A stretch of 64,000 nt of DNA from a virus (Duplodnaviria > Caudoviricetes), in IMG/VR virus record IMGVR_UViG_3300033067_002132, positions 32,001 through 96,000 of that record. One strand, written 5' to 3'. Position 1 is the stretch's first letter, and each line of letters begins with the position of its first letter. The position numbers and the translations under genes are program-made. The notes under the pieces were generated by a model that saw nothing but the letters and a program-made list of their open reading frames with translations, ran no database searches and was not told where the DNA came from. Shown piece after piece: positions 38,313 through 57,563 of the stretch.

Positions 38313-38436
38313 GTTAATGTAGAAAATTGGCAAATCAGGGGGTTTGTACCGAAAACAGAAATCACAGGGAAGACCGCCGATTAATGATATAGCTGTTAGA
38401 CATTAATTTATGTAGGTTCGACTCCTACCATTAACT
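38313..38436 (+). ncRNA. Class II tRNA-like RNA with inflated anticodon loop
   Basis: GTTAATG/CATTAAC acceptor, TGGCAAA D-loop, GTAGG-TTCGACT-CCTAC T-arm; no 7-nt anticodon loop and no CCA. Confidence 0.6.
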
Positions 38437-45122: not shown

Positions 45123-45216
45123 GGTCCCATAGTTTAATGGTAAAACGCACGGCTTATACCCGTGATAAGCTCTAGATTTGGGCACGTTCTAGGTTCGAAT
45201 CCTAGTGGGACTACCA
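45123..45216 (+). tRNA. tRNA-Ile(TAT) with long variable arm
   Basis: GGTCCCA/TGGGACT acceptor, CACGG-CTTATAC-CCGTG, ~24-nt variable region, CTAGG-TTCGAAT-CCTAG, CCA. Confidence 0.85.
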
Positions 45217-49390: not shown

Positions 49391-51140
49391 AATTTTATGC
49401 AAAACTTTCTAAATATCGCGAAAATAAATCGTAATAATTTTATTAAACGTTGCAGTAAATGCGACGAGGCAAAACTTGATTTATTCGAATATAAAGATAG
49501 TGTATTCGATGAAAAATTCACGCTAATTTGCTCGTGCTGTCATTACGTAATATTTAATCTCTCTGTTTTGGACTAAGAAAAACAGTTATTGACTTTCAAT
49601 CGGCGATTTAGTATTTTCTAACCATGAAACTTGACCAAGCTCTCGCCTATCTCAAAAGTTCCGGTTTCAAAATCACTCAGAAAGGCACAAAAACTTTTTT
49701 GGTTCAAAAGGGGAATGATCACCCTTGGCAAGCGGGAGAAGAGAAATTAATTAGAGTCGCGGAAAAGTACAAAAACATTCAAGAATAATTGACGCAAAAC
49801 GTTCACGTTTAAGTCTATGCAAATCACCCGCAGATCCCCCCTTACTGGCGAGAAGAATACTCGCGAAATTCCCGTGACTTTTCAAAACATAAAAGAATGG
49901 CAAAATGGTAAGTCAATTCAAGACGCTATGCCAAATCTTTCGGCGGAAGATCGAGAGTTTATTATGACTGGTTATACTCCCGAAGATTGGGCGAAAATGT
50001 TTCCGTCCGAACCTGAGAACTAAGTAAAAATTCTTATTGACGTTTAGCGCGGAATCGTTAGATTCAAGCCTATGAAATTAACTAAGTACCCTTTCAACGG
50101 AAGATGGCGCGTGGAAATGGTAGGAACGATTGACGAAATCGATTCTTATCTAATTCGCTTATACAATATTGGTGCGACAAATGCGACTTTTGAGCGCGAT
50201 CAATTGGAGACGTTTTTTCATATTGACTTGGAAAAGAAACGGTGGGAAAAGGCTTTGTCCGGCTGGTTGCAAATCCAAAATGCCGAAAACGAAACGCGCA
50301 AATTGTGCCGAATTGCACAGAAACAGCGCCGGGATAAAATTCCCATTTATTCGCAAGTAATGCAACGTTTGGCGCAAGAAGAAATCGCGGCAATTCCTAT
50401 TCCTGAAATCAAATCTGCTGTCCTGTCGCTTAAGAATCACGACTATAAGGGAATCTCTTATATCGTGGGGACCGATCATGAGGCGGAAATGATGAGTAAG
50501 GAAACGGAAATCCCTGCCAAAATTAACGTAAAGAAAATGACGGCGCGAAATTTTTCTTGCAACGCAACGGCAAGCGAGTAAGGATGAAGCCATGAACGGA
50601 CAAGAATTTTCCCAAAAGCAAACGGCAATCTTTAATAAGTATGAAATCACAGATCCGAGAATGGTCTCGATTATTTCATGCCAAGCTTGGGAGGATAATC
50701 ATTCGGACGGTTATGAAGCCGTCCTAGTAAAAACTGAAAAATATTGTCAGTTTACTGAAACGATCTTGAGTGCGTTTTTCGCTAGTATTAAATTGCGCTA
50801 AACAAGAATATAAGCCATGCCTCATTTGCCCATTTCTTTAGCTCTTTTGACAGATTTAGAAAGAGAAGAAAGCATAAGACGGGAAAGAACGGAAAAATAT
50901 ATCTTTGAAATAAAAGAAGCAAAGAAAGAATTCGAAAAAATGAATGAAATACATCACGGTTTTATTGGTTATTGGCCCGAAATGAACGAGCAAAAAAAGG
51001 CCAAACTATCCAGCCCTAAATGGGCCGATTTTCGGAAAAAGGGAAAAATCAAAGGGTGGCAGCGGAATAAACGTTGACGCGGAAATTAATTTAGGATAGG
51101 CTTTCGGTGTTGTGAGATTGGAGAGAGTTGAAACAACAAC

Positions 51141-51284
51141 GGCGGGGTAGTTTAATTGGTAAAATATTTTCCTTTTTTTGGTAGGCAATAGGGATCAATA
51201 TTGCCAATATCCGAAACGAAATCAAGACTGATCCTCTTGAATAAAATAAGGAAAAAGTTGCGGGTTCAAATCCCGCTCTCGTCT
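51141..51284 (+). ncRNA. tRNA scaffold whose anticodon loop is replaced by a two-hairpin kissing-loop insert
   Basis: Acceptor, D and T arms intact; TTTTCCTT/AAGGAAAA stem encloses ~75 nt. Confidence 0.7.
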
Positions 51285-52458
51285 GCTCCAATAATTAGCT
51301 AAAGTTAAATAAAGCTAAAAAAACAGAAAAACGAGGCGTCAAATTATACGCCTACACAACACAAAATGGAATATAAATATCTTCCCCATTACGACGATAA
51401 AACGTCAATAAGATTCGGCGAACTACCTTTGCCAAAGGAGATTTTTGCGCGGCAGGAATTAATGCGCGAAATTGGATTTACTGCGGGCGAGGAAGTTTGG
51501 AAGAAAGGGTATGGATACGTACCCATTTATTATTTCGTTCGCGAATTAACGAAAGACGAGCAAAATCTTTTGTGCCTTTGCCCCTTGACGGATGAGACGG
51601 CCGATGGTAAATTTCGTTCATGACGCCAATTACGCTGACCCCCGAGCAATTGCTTAACCTGCTTAAAGATTGCAAACGCGAAAGCGTTTTGTGCTGTAAT
51701 AGTTCGCTGCCAATTAAGCTTGTTTTGATCACTGAAATGCGTGAGGGACCGACAGGCTATTTGCCGCGCAGTATTTTCGGTGTTTATTACAAAAATCAAG
51801 TCGGGCGATTTTTTAATTCTTTGGAGGAAGCAATTGAATGCTATTGCCGAATTGAGAAAGCGAACGAAAGATTTCCTTGACGCTCAAAGACATTAGTTAA
51901 TACTCTCTCGCATGAACTCCACGATACTCAAAGTCTCTTATACTGGAACGCAGATTATCATCGCGAAAACGCTGGCCGCGATGCGAATTAAGAATCCCGC
52001 GCCGATTAAGTTCTATCCTACCAGAGCGGCGAGAGGAACTCATAACGTTGAGCGTATGTTCACGGTTTACCTTGAAGTTGAGACCACCACGGGGCGAATT
52101 CTGAGCGGCGGCGTGCAAGTTAACTAAATCTTTTATGGTAACAAAAACCTTTGCTTTCCTTCCTCTTAATAACAAGCAAGCAACGCCCGAATTTCGCTCT
52201 TTTATTTTGTCATTTATTGAAGGAATTAGAGTAGCGGAATCGGCACGCGGGCACGTTGTGCGAATTGAACCTACACTAAGCGGGGATTGTTCCGGTTGGT
52301 TGCTTGTATGCGAAGCGGAAATGGGAAAAGTTATTGGACAGTATTTGTCAAATCTCAATATTGAGCTTCGCGAGATTTGAAAACGCCCACTTGACAAAAA
52401 GCAAAGTCTCAGCTAACCTTTAGAAGTCGGTAGGAAAACAACGAAACGAAACAACACT

Positions 52459-52806
52459 ATGAAGAACGAAACCTTTGTGAACAGTCTCTTGAATGCGTCG
52501 GTCCCTACGGGCAAGATCGATTTGGCCGCGGTCCAGGCGGCGATTCAGGAAAAGAACGATGAGAACAACCGCGCCAAGATCGAACGCGCCCGCAATCTTT
52601 TCGAACGGTTGAATGGGGAAGTCACGTCCGCCGTGGAAAGCCTGCGAATCATTCGTCAGCAGGAAAAGGAAGCGAAGCAAACCGTGATTCGGCATGCTGC
52701 CGCTTTCGCCACGTTCAAGGAAACGGGCGATCTCAATAAGGTCGCGGCGATCCTGTACCCCGGCGAGAAGATCGCGCAGGAAAATTTCGTCCGCCGATAT
52801 TCCTGA
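52459..52806 (+). CDS. Hypothetical coiled-coil protein upstream of the pistol ribozyme
   Basis: ORF with own promoter TTGACA-N17-TAACCT at 52391. Confidence 0.7.
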   Translation: MKNETFVNSLLNASVPTGKIDLAAVQAAIQEKNDENNRAKIERARNLFERLNGEVTSAVESLRIIRQQEKEAKQTVIRHAAAFATFKETGDLNKVAAILYPGEKIAQENFVRRYS

Positions 52807-52817
52807 TCGCATAACAA

Positions 52818-52887
52818 ACTCGACTAGGCGAGTATAAATAGATAATTAAGCCTAGTGCGTTTGCGGGTAAAACCCCGCAAGGTTTAT
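52818..52887 (+). ncRNA. Pistol self-cleaving ribozyme
   Basis: ACTCG-ACTAGG-CGAGT-ATAAA-TAG-ATAA-TTAA-GCCTAGT-GCG-P3 hairpin-GT-TTAT; matches the pistol layout element by element. Confidence 0.88.
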
Positions 52888-53020
52888 GATATTAATTATA
52901 TATTATCTCCGAATTGCAAGTGCCTTGCGCCGCGCAATTTATCCCTGAAACAACAGGGGTTAAAAGCTTCAAGCTAAAGGAAAAAAAAGCCTTCGTGCTG
53001 TCGGTGTTTGTTTCCTTCGT

Positions 53021-53061
53021 TGAGTGGGGCGGGGAGAGAAATCTTCCCGCCTCATTTGTTT
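53021..53061 (+). terminator. Intrinsic terminator
   Basis: TGGGGCGGGGAGA-GAAA-TCTTCCCGCCTCA hairpin followed by a T-rich tail. Confidence 0.7.
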
Positions 53062-53097
53062 ATTGACATGCGCGGTGCATTTAGCTAATTTGATCGC

Positions 53098-53607
53098 ATG
53101 CAAGACCTGACCGCTTCTCTCGCCGATAGTCTTTCACGCAAACACTATCGCAAGACGCCTGCCATGTTTTCCGTCATGACTCTGCGCGATAAACTTCCTT
53201 TCGATTCTAAGCCTCTCGCCGATGATCCTAATAAAATTGCCGATTATTGTCGCCAAGCAATTATTGGCAAAAAAGGGTACAATCCCGACGTGGAAAGTTG
53301 TTGGGTTATCGTAATGAATACGCGCCGACGAATTGAAGGGCATTTTCTAGTAGCAACAGGAACTCTCGACACTTTGTTAGTTCATGCTCGCGAAGTGTTT
53401 CGCGGCGCTATTCTTGCCAATGCTGCGGCGATTGTTCTTATGCATAATCACCCAAGCGGCGACCCGACTCCGAGCGAAGCTGATATCCGCGTGACCCGAG
53501 AAATGATTAGAGCGGGCCAACTACTAAAAATCGAAGTATTAGATCACGTAATTTTAGGAGAACCTAAGCATTGCTCGCTTAAGGAATTAGGGTATTTTAC
53601 TTATTAG
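53098..53607 (+). CDS. radC: RadC/JAB-domain protein
   Basis: HAREVFR.AI, HNHPSGDPTPS.AD, LDHVI. Confidence 0.92.
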   Translation: MQDLTASLADSLSRKHYRKTPAMFSVMTLRDKLPFDSKPLADDPNKIADYCRQAIIGKKGYNPDVESCWVIVMNTRRRIEGHFLVATGTLDTLLVHAREVFRGAILANAAAIVLMHNHPSGDPTPSEADIRVTREMIRAGQLLKIEVLDHVILGEPKHCSLKELGYFTY

Positions 53608-54078
53608 GCAAAATTTGCCTATTGACTTTTCATTTTCGTTCTGATAGCTTTAAATTATGCAAATCGACAAGCAACTACTCATCGCCCGCAACACGCTTCT
53701 CAACCTGAACGAAGAGTTGGCTGGATATCGCATTTACTTCATGGGTGATAAATTCCGCGAGGATACCACGGTACAAGTTCATGAAATTCTTTCGCGAATT
53801 CTGATCCTTAAAGACCAAGTGGAAACCGCATTGGAAAGTGTCACAATGCCTTTCAAGGTTCAAGTGGCGGCGGGCGAATTGAATCCTGGCGATAAAGCTT
53901 TTTTGATCGAAACGAATCCCGAAATGGGAATGGAAGAAACCCTCGACTGGACCTGTACATATATCGGCCAAGAAAAGGTTCTTTTCGAATACGTAAAACA
54001 AGGAAAACAAACGAGAACCACAATGCGGAATAAAACTGAGATTGTTTGGAAACTGCGCTAAATTAAATTCGATTGAAA

Positions 54079-54294
54079 AATCCCCGATTCTAGAATTTAT
54101 TGCTAAATAAAAAGCCTACTCAAATTCCCTGGTTCTAGAAAGTCGCGCTAAATAAAAGTACGTAGCGCGGACCCTGGCCGATTGGGCGCATAGCGGGCCG
54201 AACTAGCCGGGGCAATTAGAGTAGAAACCCTTAAGAATTAAAACTATGGTAAAAACCCTTAAGAACAGGCGTTATGGTAAAAACAACTAAGATC
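54079..54294. repeat. Two sets of imperfect direct repeats
   Basis: 2x AAAT.CC..TTCTAGAA...GCTAAATAAAA; 3x GTA(A/G)AAAC..TAAGA. Confidence 0.55.
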
Positions 54295-54367
54295 AGCACC
54301 TAGAAGAAAAGAGCTAAGGAAAAGAACTATTGCAACGCCAATGGCTTTCTGCCAAGCTTTCGCTCCT

Positions 54368-54916
54368 ATGAATCCTATTGAAACCCTAAAGACATTCGCG
54401 CACAATCCTCCCGGATTTGCCAGTTTTACCTATACGGCAAAAGGTAGCGGGGAAACTGCGCGGCATACCGTCATCCTCGGATTTGACTACAACAAGAGTG
54501 TGGAAAAGAGCCTAACCGATTTGGCGTGCATTAATCGGGCGGATTTCCCCGCAATTTCGGATGAATTGTGGCCCGTTGCCGTTTCGGAAATTCGGGCCAG
54601 TCTCGAAAAGACGCTGGCCGCGCACGTAAGGGGCGAGCAAAACGCGGACTACACAAAAAAGGATCAGTATTTGTCCCTGGGGTTTTCTGGTATGCACGTT
54701 AACCTTAATGACGGAAGCCTACAAGTTTTCGGGCTGGCGCACGCTAAGACTGTCCTGGTGCCCGGCGAATATAAGCCCGTCAAATCCCGTCCCCTCACGC
54801 TGGCCAAGGAAGCCATCCGCAAGACGCTGGCCGTGGGAAAATTCCGCGAGTTTGCCTTTGACTCCGGGACGATACACACTGTCCGCATGAACGGTTCGAC
54901 CCTCGAAATCGAGTAG
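54368..54916 (+). CDS. Conserved hypothetical phage protein
   Basis: Long ORF behind a TTGCAA promoter; YK.VKS..LT.AK..IRK.L...KFR.F. Confidence 0.65.
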   Translation: MNPIETLKTFAHNPPGFASFTYTAKGSGETARHTVILGFDYNKSVEKSLTDLACINRADFPAISDELWPVAVSEIRASLEKTLAAHVRGEQNADYTKKDQYLSLGFSGMHVNLNDGSLQVFGLAHAKTVLVPGEYKPVKSRPLTLAKEAIRKTLAVGKFREFAFDSGTIHTVRMNGSTLEIE

Positions 54917-55347
54917 GGGGAAAGACTATGCTCTTTCTCCTAATCGTTATCATTATCATCCTTTGTGCCGCTTACCATGAATAGAATAAAAAACGCTATC
55001 CTAATTCTTTTTTGGGTAGGCGTAGGATTCGGCGTTATTTTCGTAGTTTTTACCTTTATTTCGAACCTTTATTCTTCCTAGTTATGAAGCTAACCTTTTG
55101 CCTTGTATGGGGTCGCAATCGCCAGTTTCGCCTAAGCGAGCAAGGCTTAGCTGTGCTGCGCGTCCTTCGTCCCTTTGGCCCCTTGCCGTTCCTGCGGTGG
55201 GATTCCGTTGTGCGATTCGATCCTGGCCTTGCGTTGCTTGCGTTGCTCTTTTCGCTCCTTTTCGCATTTACCTATTGACGGCAAAAACCGTGTCTGATAC
55301 CGTTTCCTTGTCGGTCGCAGAAACAACCAAAACAAATTAGATAGAAC

Positions 55348-56166
55348 ATGAAAGCCAAACTTTACTTGCACGCTGGCGGAGCCCTTACAACGTGGGACGC
55401 GCTTAATGCTCTGCCCACCCCGCCCGCGATTGGCAAACACGTCCCTGTTGGACACGCGGCCTTTTTGGACCGCATCGAAAGACTGTTGCCCGTGGACGGA
55501 TTCAGTGTGATCGAACGCCAGATTGCCGTCGCAAAGGACGGGGCGCGGATGTTTGCGCTCCTTCAACTAGCCCACCCTAGCCTAACGTGTGGCGATGGGT
55601 CAGGGTATATCATGGGTGTGCGAAACTCTCACGACAAGGCGTTTGCCGCTTCTGTTACCGTGGGCCGTTGCCCCTTCGTTTGCGATAATCTCGCGTTTTC
55701 GTCCGGGGCGGATGGTGTTGTCGTTAATCGGCGCCATATTGGGGGCGTGCATCGTGACTTGGGCGGAATGGTTATGGAGTTAATCGCGGGGCTCGCCGAT
55801 CGATTCCGGATTACGGATGCTCGGGACGCTTGTTATCGGGGCGCTACGCTTGACAATCGGGACGCTGATCACTTCGTTTTAGAGTTGTACCGCAACGGGG
55901 CGATTGGTTGGGGCGAAGCACGCCGTGTTCTCGCGGAGTACCACGGGACGGCCGTTAACCCCGACAAGGTTGAATTCCGTCATGCGGAATTCGAACCCCG
56001 GACCGCCTATTCTCTTTTCAACGCTTTTACGCAAGAATTGAAGGGAATTGACGACAAGGGTGTGGCCCACCCTAACGTTTGGGAACTCCCGAAGGCGACC
56101 GCAATCGCGTGCGAAGTGTTCGACCGCCTTTGCACCTTCAACCCCGCCGGGGCGATTGTCGTCTAG
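55348..56166 (+). CDS. DUF932-family protein
   Basis: G.RNSHDK, FVCDNLAF, RH, T.YSLFNAFT..LK. Confidence 0.8.
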   Translation: MKAKLYLHAGGALTTWDALNALPTPPAIGKHVPVGHAAFLDRIERLLPVDGFSVIERQIAVAKDGARMFALLQLAHPSLTCGDGSGYIMGVRNSHDKAFAASVTVGRCPFVCDNLAFSSGADGVVVNRRHIGGVHRDLGGMVMELIAGLADRFRITDARDACYRGATLDNRDADHFVLELYRNGAIGWGEARRVLAEYHGTAVNPDKVEFRHAEFEPRTAYSLFNAFTQELKGIDDKGVAHPNVWELPKATAIACEVFDRLCTFNPAGAIVV

Positions 56167-56176
56167 TGTGACTCAC

Positions 56177-56207
56177 GGGGAAGGGGGCTTTCCCCCTTCC
56201 CCCCTCT
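56177..56207 (+). terminator. GC-rich hairpin, possible terminator
   Basis: GGGGAAGGGGG/CCCCCTTCCCC hairpin with a weak tail. Confidence 0.5.
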
Positions 56208-56573
56208 CCTCAATTCCAATCTCTACCAACACTAAAAACCATGAATTCCACCATCGCGAAAAATCTCGAAAACTGGCGTGAGTCCCGCGGGCTTAACATT
56301 CGCCGAAACGAAGTCAACCGAATCCTCGCTCAACGGGTCGCAAACGAAGCGGCAGAGAACGCCCGGCGAGCCGAGGAAGCCTTGCAAGCGGGGCTTGCGT
56401 CAGATCGGATCGAACGTGCCAAACGTATGGGGGCTACCCCGCCCGCTTCTGCTATCGACGTAAAGTTTCGGCGCGGGTCGGATGGAAGGGGCGGGCGTAC
56501 TTTCTGGGAATGGATTTTCCCCAAGCAAATCGAGACTGTCGCGGCCTATTAAGTAAAAGCGCGTAGGCTATCG

Positions 56574-56603
56574 CCCCCTAGGTCACAAGCCTAGGGGGTT
56601 TTT
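56574..56603 (+). terminator. Intrinsic terminator ending the GC-richer block
   Basis: CCCCTAGG/CCTAGGGG followed by a T run. Confidence 0.8.
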
Positions 56604-57563
56604 CTTATACCCCGCCAACGCTCTAGGATCGACGGAGAAGCGTTTTGATTGCGCGACGATACCAACAGAACGCCAACAATTAATGATAACGCCAGACAAA
56701 CCGCTGTAGCTACCCTATAGGCACGGTCGATAGCGCCGAAAGCCAACTAACTGTTAAAGGAAGCTAGGCAAAAAGTGCCGTTTTGAACTAAATGGGCGCG
56801 AATAAGAAAGATCACTAAGAAATTATGCCCCCCAATTTCTTAATTAATTTTAGTAGTGAAATTTCGTAGATGCCCCCGGGGAGGTCGAATTAACTCGCTC
56901 ATTATCATTTAAACCTTTTATTATATATTCTTTCTTTCCCCACATATATATAAATCATTAATAACGTATTATAATTTAATCTTTTATTGTATATATTACT
57001 CTCTATATCTTTATCTATTATTCCTCTTCTAAAAAGAAGTCGAAGTTATAGTTTTTTGTAAAAATGGCGGGGGTCATATTTATTCTATAGCTTTATTATA
57101 GATATAGGGGGGGTATTTCTTATTCTATATAGATTTAAAAATATTAATAAATATTAGTTTTTATAAAAATGGCCCGAAGTATATTTTTTATAGACCTTTG
57201 TTATAGATACTCTTTTTTTATTCTGTGTAATAATGTTTAGATTTCCGCCCGAATATATTTAATATAAAACAATGAATACAGAAGAAAATGATGTTTTATG
57301 GAATCTTGCTAAGGAAAGTTTAGATGTACTTAAAGAACAAGATAAAAATGCGGCGCCATTAATTATAGTTGGATTTAATAATCAAACTACTCAGGTTTAT
57401 TCTTATACTCTTCCTTATCCCGGATTAACTTTATTAGATTATTCATTAATTCTTGGTTCTATTGCTAAGGATCATTTAAATACTTTTAATTATGATTCTA
57501 AAAAATTAGAACAAATAAAATTAGAAATCGCCCAAGGATTTATAGAAGGATTAAATTCAAAAA

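Follow-up and report, generated by a model that had tools for sequence, protein, structure and literature searches.

The window, meaning the whole 64,000-nucleotide stretch of viral DNA analysed here, is part of a 193,745-bp IMG/VR virus record with a CheckV completeness of 100%, in which matches to a large terminase, PhoH, an endolysin-like protein and endonuclease VII attest to its phage nature. At Rfam gathering scores, about 24 tRNAs, one tmRNA and one pistol ribozyme were found across the genome, with no member of any other Rfam ribozyme family, and a descriptor scan likewise found a single pistol. The pistol lies in a GC-rich island (approximately 49500–57000; GC 0.40–0.58, the genome as a whole having 0.29) whose right edge, near 56900–57000, is sharp and which contains small unknown genes, the pistol with the protein gene preceding it (hereafter the cassette; Table 1), a RadC gene (53098–53607) and a DUF932 gene (55348–56166). 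The island genes are devoid of Shine-Dalgarno runs, and no DNA similar to positions 51300–54100 was found among the GenBank phages. The DNA around the relatives of the cassette has a GC content of 0.35–0.52, which suggests that the island was acquired from a phage or another element of higher GC content.

Table 1. Coordinates of the cassette, of the parts of the ribozyme and of the flanking elements in the window.
Feature	Position	Strand	Basis or remark
Promoter-like site, TGGACA-N16-AATATT	52335–52362	+	9/12 matches; gene begins ~97 nt downstream
Protein gene (115 aa, mostly helical, family unnamed)	52459–52806	+	ORF, homologues, predicted fold
Stop-to-P1 spacer, 11 nt	52807–52817	+	Sequence
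Full-length pistol ribozyme, predicted self-cleaving	52818–52887	+	Rfam RF02679
P1 hairpin, 5 bp (ACUCG/CGAGU)	52818–52822 / 52829–52833 (hairpin 52818–52833)	+	Rfam alignment
Pseudoknot, 6 bp, P1 loop ACUAGG with CCUAGU	52823–52828 / 52851–52856	+	Rfam alignment
A-rich linker, AUAAAUAG	52834–52841	+	Agrees with the upper-case Rfam consensus AUAAAuA
P2, four A-U pairs (AUAA/UUAU)	52842–52845 / 52884–52887	+	Rfam alignment
UUAA	52846–52849	+	Rfam alignment
Active-site loop between the P2 5' strand and P3, UUAAGCCUAGUGCG	52846–52859	+	Rfam alignment
Purine-32 (A); G33-C41; G40; G42	52849; 52850/52858; 52857; 52859	+	env25 numbering
P3 hairpin, UUUGCGGG / CCCGCAAG, 8 pairs including the closing U-G, loop UAAAAC	52860–52867 / 52874–52881	+	Rfam alignment, fold
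Predicted scissile G|U junction, two nt	52882–52883	+	Rfam structure line
20-codon ORF (MILIIYYLRIASALRRAIYP), not regarded as a gene	52886–52948	+	ATG at 52886
Non-coding spacer, pistol to terminator, 133 nt	52888–53020	+	Would be the body of a released 3' fragment
Strong intrinsic terminator (17-pair stem closed by a 4-nt loop, then a U-rich tail)	53021–53058	+	Ends the transcription unit

The promoter-like site upstream of the gene is a weak candidate for what may be the cassette's own promoter, and sites of this kind are no more numerous in the region than in shuffled sequences. On the other side of the terminator, a TTGACA (53063–53068) is followed after 17 nt by TAATTT and then by the RadC ATG at 53098; if these two boxes do act as a promoter, it would yield a RadC mRNA with little or no leader. 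A link between RadC and the pistol was ruled out, in that no pistol-like core was found near the RadC homologues at 80 IMG/VR loci, and the matches to the Moco, FinP and L20 leader models in 52916–53088 did not reach their cut-offs and were attributed to chance.

Three unusual tRNA-like elements were also observed on the plus strand of the window. The one at 51141–51284 (Rfam tRNA, 47.2 bits) has intact acceptor, D and T arms and a 75-nt insert in the anticodon loop, and a gene of this kind whose insert is 58 nt long was found in the syntenic contig L236 (726–850; 40.7 bits), so that this odd form is conserved. A tRNA-Ile(UAU) at 45123–45213 (65.1 bits) carries about 20 extra nucleotides in the variable region, while a borderline 124-nt match with a long insert at 38313–38436 scores 29.4 bits, right at the cut-off.

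Identity of the ribozyme and its place in the pistol class

The segment at 52818–52887 matches the Rfam Pistol family (RF02679) over the entire model (positions 1–68 of 68) with 68.6 bits, the gathering score being 34.5 bits, and with E = 2e-10 in the 64-kb window; the match was repeated both in the whole-genome search and in a permissive scan. A preliminary description of this DNA had proposed a pistol ribozyme in the 3' UTR of a phage gene, beginning 11 nt after its stop codon, and all of this holds: every element listed there was found at its place, the distance was confirmed in the sequence, and the ribozyme does lie between the stop of the upstream gene and a terminator, in a genome of confirmed phage nature. 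The env25 numbering and the Rfam structure line can be fitted to the window pistol one to one up to nucleotide 43. The nucleotides to which core roles in the pistol have been assigned, namely A32, the G33-C41 pair, G40 (the proposed general base) and G42 (PMC6154101), are all found in the window, and the junction joining P3 and P2 is that expected for the class, where it is strictly of two nucleotides, usually G-U, and holds the scissile bond (PMC4604425). Cleavage by pistol ribozymes depends on divalent ions; it generates 2',3'-cyclic phosphate and 5'-OH ends (PMC4604425).

When the sequence is folded without constraints, the minimum-free-energy structure (z = –3.6) includes both P3 and the pseudoknot helix. 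P2 helices of 3–4 bp are of the usual length, also in the relatives of the cassette, but that of the window is the only all-A/U P2 among 41 parsed pistols, and with just four A-U pairs cleavage could be slow or the ribozyme could misfold. Four DNA runs returned only contigs identical to the window and the 5' half of a pistol from another phage.

To place the element within its class, IMG/VR was searched with the core pattern, which yielded more than 117 loci; 91 distinct 5' cores were aligned with that of the window, giving a set of 92 phage pistols. P1 and the pseudoknot covary in this set, with 97% of the cells paired against 72% in shuffles and with changes on both sides in 263 P1/pseudoknot cells, and the signal disappears when the partners are slid by 1–3 columns; with both helices in the same register as in the window, the covariation score is 0.65, against 0.17 in shuffles. 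The first pseudoknot pair (A6-U39) is A-U in the window and U-A in the consensus, and A-U recurs in 26 of the 92. G33, C34, G40, C41 and G42 are invariant throughout, an invariance mostly preset by the search pattern. According to a rough survey of 101 IMG/VR pistols, one quarter of them start at most 3 nt from the upstream stop codon. The P1 and pseudoknot sequence of the window was found in 28 further metagenome contigs, whose flanks are unrelated and in which no homologues of the genes neighbouring the window pistol were detected.

Several other arrangements were encountered among these pistols. Five of them occur within about 4 kb in one IMG/VR phage contig (L168, 306–4330) and four lie close together in another (L102), and several of the clustered pistols in such contigs are located just upstream of Shine-Dalgarno sequences. 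A near-identical 5' core (P1 GAUG/CAUC, pseudoknot AGUCAG/CUGACU) is present in L084, L086, L099, L104, L105 and other huge-phage contigs of 350–400 kb, followed by a stretch made only of A and U, in which a normal P3 and P2 were not found. Finally, in the metagenome contigs L210, L222 and L217, pistols with a window-type P1 and pseudoknot adjoin, on either side, tRNA-like 3' halves (GGUUCGAnUCC), which hints at a link of some pistols with tRNA processing.

Linkage with a small protein gene

The gene upstream of the pistol encodes a protein of 115 amino acids, for which AlphaFold2, run on the single sequence, predicts one long helix at residues 22–89 (pLDDT 87). No family match was found in Pfam or PHROG, and no usable indication of its function came from the ESM Atlas, from a fold search in BFVD or from a profile search against the PDB. 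Word-based searches for related loci and proteins returned no relatives of this ORF, nor did single-protein IMG/VR scans with the homologues P0009 and P0006 give any matches; only an exhaustive phmmer search, against 1.84 billion cluster representatives, revealed 13 full-length homologues (E ≤ 5.5e-4). These are 24–45% identical to the window's protein in the alignment and share two conserved motifs, LRxxRxQEKxAK and TGD...YP, of which the invariant LR..R..E part is located on the long helix.

DNA could be read for ten lineages of this family, mostly on short contigs, consisting of the window and the loci of P0001, P0002, P0004, P0005, P0006, P0007, P0009, P0010 and P0011; P0014 was counted together with P0006 because the pistols of their contigs (L247 and L241) are identical, and P0003, P0008, P0012 and P0013 stand outside the count. 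In nine of the ten lineages, the window included, a pistol lies directly 3' of the stop codon, at a distance of 6–21 nt. The pistols of the relatives score 41.6 bits (P0001, L236/L237, truncated by the contig end), 54.0 bits (P0002, L238), 60.0 bits (P0004, L239), 52.5 bits (P0005, L240), 58.9 bits (P0006, L241–243, and P0014, L247), 47.8 bits (P0009, L246), 60.6 bits (P0010, L248) and 35.0 bits (P0011, L249), the last one being complete by eye, and Rfam searches found no further pistols elsewhere in the approximately 30 kb of homologue loci. The exception is P0007 (L244/L245), which has no pistol, and for which a scan of the L244 gap relaxed to E ≤ 10 detected no known ribozyme; the gene can thus do without it. 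At this locus, a long hairpin (GGUGGA...UCCACC; L244 1174–1370, the same in L245) is followed by AAUAAAGCCUAGAGCU, similar to the pistol linker plus the 3' strand of the pseudoknot, and then by a terminator and a TTGACT promoter. The hairpin together with AAUAAAGCCUAGAGCU could be the relic of a pistol or a rearranged pistol.

The P1 helix differs from lineage to lineage (ACUCG, AGUGG, CGUGG, ACUGG or UGUGG), with a matching 3' strand each time, and P2 and P3 differ throughout through compensatory changes, the catalytic core being intact. The maintenance of the pairing in P1, P2 and P3 by compensatory changes, alongside proteins of only 24–45% identity, is a signature of selection acting on the RNA. 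Among the pistols linked to the gene, the ACUAGG/CCUAGU pseudoknot hardly changes in sequence, whereas the pseudoknot sequence of other phage pistols varies freely. The DNA downstream of the cassette is unrelated between lineages and the neighbouring genes are mostly different, except in L236, which is syntenic with 50072–52806 of the window over five genes at 37–73% identity.

The association is one-sided. When some 150 further IMG/VR and metagenome loci with pistols were scanned with the family HMM, no convincing member was found, the sole extra match being a weak one (E 0.005) in L164, about 1.3 kb from the pistol of that contig. Taken together, the survey of the linkage and the HMM scan indicate that most pistols follow other genes and that the 115-aa gene almost always has a pistol. 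That pistols occur near phage genes has been known since the discovery of the class (Harris et al., 2015; PMC4604425). No description of the gene-specific cassette was found in the searchable literature, which did not cover Weinberg et al. (2015) on ribozyme-associated genes; the pistol element itself belongs to a known class, to which the gene-specific cassette adds something modest but useful.

Downstream RNA and the proposed role of cleavage

The pistol and the 115-aa gene can be regarded as a conserved two-part cassette, in which cleavage, on balance, probably serves to fix the 3' end of the mRNA and insulate the gene, in a constitutive manner. Transcript processing that alters stability or translation is the general proposal for bacterial ribozymes (PMC6765202), and the setting of the mRNA 3' end by cleavage fits with a gene and a pistol that, as far as the comparison of the loci goes, have been inherited together. 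Once the unit is transcribed, the ribozyme would fold behind the polymerase, and the 2'-oxygen of G52882 would attack the adjacent phosphate, cutting the G52882|U52883 bond by internal transesterification. The upstream mRNA would then end 76 nt past the stop codon, with the compactly folded ribozyme and a 2',3'-cyclic phosphate at its terminus, and the second product, roughly 180 nt long and beginning with the 5'-OH of U52883, would extend to the terminator. In this way the message would be split from the spacer, the terminator and any read-through, and with a 3' end that stays the same in any context, neither its stability nor its translation would depend on the sequence that happens to lie downstream. 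For a gene that passes from one phage genome to another, and that is found here in a GC-rich island, the pistol would resemble an insulator carried along on the 3' side.

Non-coding DNA of 130–710 nt follows the pistol in every lineage and is often closed by a terminator-like hairpin, which lies 91–350 nt past the pistol in the window, L238, L241/L247 and L246; in L241 and L247 the next genes are convergent. From this arrangement the cassette appears to end a transcription unit in several lineages. In L238, a good promoter (TTGACA-N17-TACAGT) is located just upstream of its homologue. Since this non-coding DNA is kept and an element that merely makes a 3' end needs none, the downstream RNA may matter. 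The ribozyme might instead produce the 5' end (5'-OH) of a small non-coding RNA of about 180 nt, with the upstream gene merely supplying the promoter, an alternative that is rather unlikely. It is consistent with a cut so near the 3' end of the pistol that just 5 ribozyme nucleotides stay on the downstream product, with the failure to find a promoter-like site in the stretch from pistol to terminator, and with the strong structure of the L241 spacer (z = –5.0) and of the window fragment taken with its terminator (z = –4.3). Against it, the window spacer without the terminator is barely more stable than shuffles (z = –1.86) and that of L238 is no more stable than shuffles at all (z = –0.3); the spacers share no common sequence between lineages, that of the window having neither similarity to those of its relatives nor a second copy in the genome, and L244, which has no pistol, still retains the spacer and the terminator. 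The feature that has been preserved is how closely the ribozyme follows the stop codon, and nothing downstream; therefore, an action in cis on the upstream mRNA is favoured. The preliminary description had also considered the release of a nearly leaderless mRNA for the 20-codon ORF, and this idea, which has in its favour an AUG placed 3 nt past the predicted cut and a peptide with a hydrophobic start and a basic end, is scarcely credible. About 60% of the ATGs in the GC-rich island open at least 20 codons, so that an ORF of this length is unremarkable; moreover, none exists at the orthologous place in the relatives, L238 and L239 being without a nearby AUG and L246 having an AUGAUAU string that stops after two codons (AUG-AUA-UAA). 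In E. coli, leaderless initiation is disfavoured by a 5'-OH end and by extra 5' nucleotides, which also counts against it.

The near-obligate co-occurrence of gene and pistol in nine of ten deeply diverged lineages leaves room for the protein itself to be involved. Being helical and rich in Arg and Lys, it could bind the pistol RNA or its cleaved ends and so control the cutting, protect the cyclic-phosphate end or act as a partner of the RNA, in line with the proposal that an endogenous protein may interact with a ribozyme (PMC6765202). The location of the invariant LR..R..E motif on the long helix and the nearly fixed pseudoknot of the linked pistols would agree with such binding; however, no RNA-binding family or fold match emerged from the Pfam/PHROG, BFVD, PDB profile and ESM Atlas searches, cis action on the mRNA explains the co-occurrence equally well, and common descent may account for the conserved pseudoknot, which together make direct binding distinctly improbable. 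A functional protein–RNA pair in the wider sense, in which the ribozyme or its cyclic-phosphate and 5'-OH products are acted on by the protein, or the cassette is a self-contained mobile expression unit that needs its ribozyme so that the gene can work whatever its genomic surroundings, is rather doubtful as well; should it prove true, a role specific to one gene could be assigned to a natural pistol for the first time. At the other extreme, the pistol might be a neutral or selfish passenger with no role in the phage, brought along with the GC-rich island. The compositionally foreign surroundings, the presence of one ribozyme only in 194 kb and the loss of the pistol in one lineage speak for it, but the compensatory changes that keep P1, P2 and P3 paired, and the intact core nucleotides, at the protein divergence reported above, render it very unlikely.

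In one sublineage (L241 2931–3278, L247 and L248 853–911), the RNA past the pistol is both conserved and strongly structured, and contains two copies of GGACUAGAAG, similar to the 5' strand of the pistol pseudoknot (GACUAGG).

For the pistol, as for most self-cleaving ribozymes of bacteria and phages, the biological role is still not known (PMC6765202). A ribozyme kept on one small gene through deep divergence offers a simple system, made of one gene, one ribozyme and one terminator, in which it could be asked what cleavage does, whether it acts on 3'-end stability, insulation, the release of a downstream RNA or a protein–RNA partnership.

Comparison with known systems

With respect to the pistol class, represented by env25 and the related crystal structures 5K7C and 5KTJ (PMC4604425), the window element has the same architecture, core and association with phage genes; what it adds is the near-obligate tie to one protein family, and the sole structural difference is the weak all-A/U P2. 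It also resembles the phage and prophage operons punctuated by hammerhead, twister or pistol ribozymes between small genes (PMC6765202), in that it lies few nucleotides past the stop of a small gene and in that mRNA processing is the proposed role in both cases. In contrast to those operons, the ribozyme of the window is the only one in its genome, precedes a terminator instead of separating two cistrons, and tracks a gene family and not a position within an array. Ribozyme-punctuated operons are defined by at least two ribozymes in neighbouring gaps, and the 193,745 bp of this genome hold one pistol; the cassette as proposed here is defined by a pistol at most approximately 25 nt past the stop codon of a family member, and in the window it begins 11 nt past it.

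Like the glmS ribozyme (PMC6765202), the window pistol is tied to one gene and would act in cis on its mRNA. The two differ in that glmS is located in the 5' UTR and needs GlcN6P as a cofactor, whereas the pistol occupies the 3' UTR and shows no sign of requiring a ligand. Among synthetic devices, the ribozyme insulator RiboJ standardises expression through a cleavage that redefines the transcript end. Similarly, with twister ribozymes placed in the 3' UTRs of reporter genes, cleavage beside the coding region redefines the transcript end and alters expression (cited in PMC6765202). Compared with these engineered constructs, the pistol of the window would be a putative natural counterpart, located on the 3' side and inherited together with its gene.
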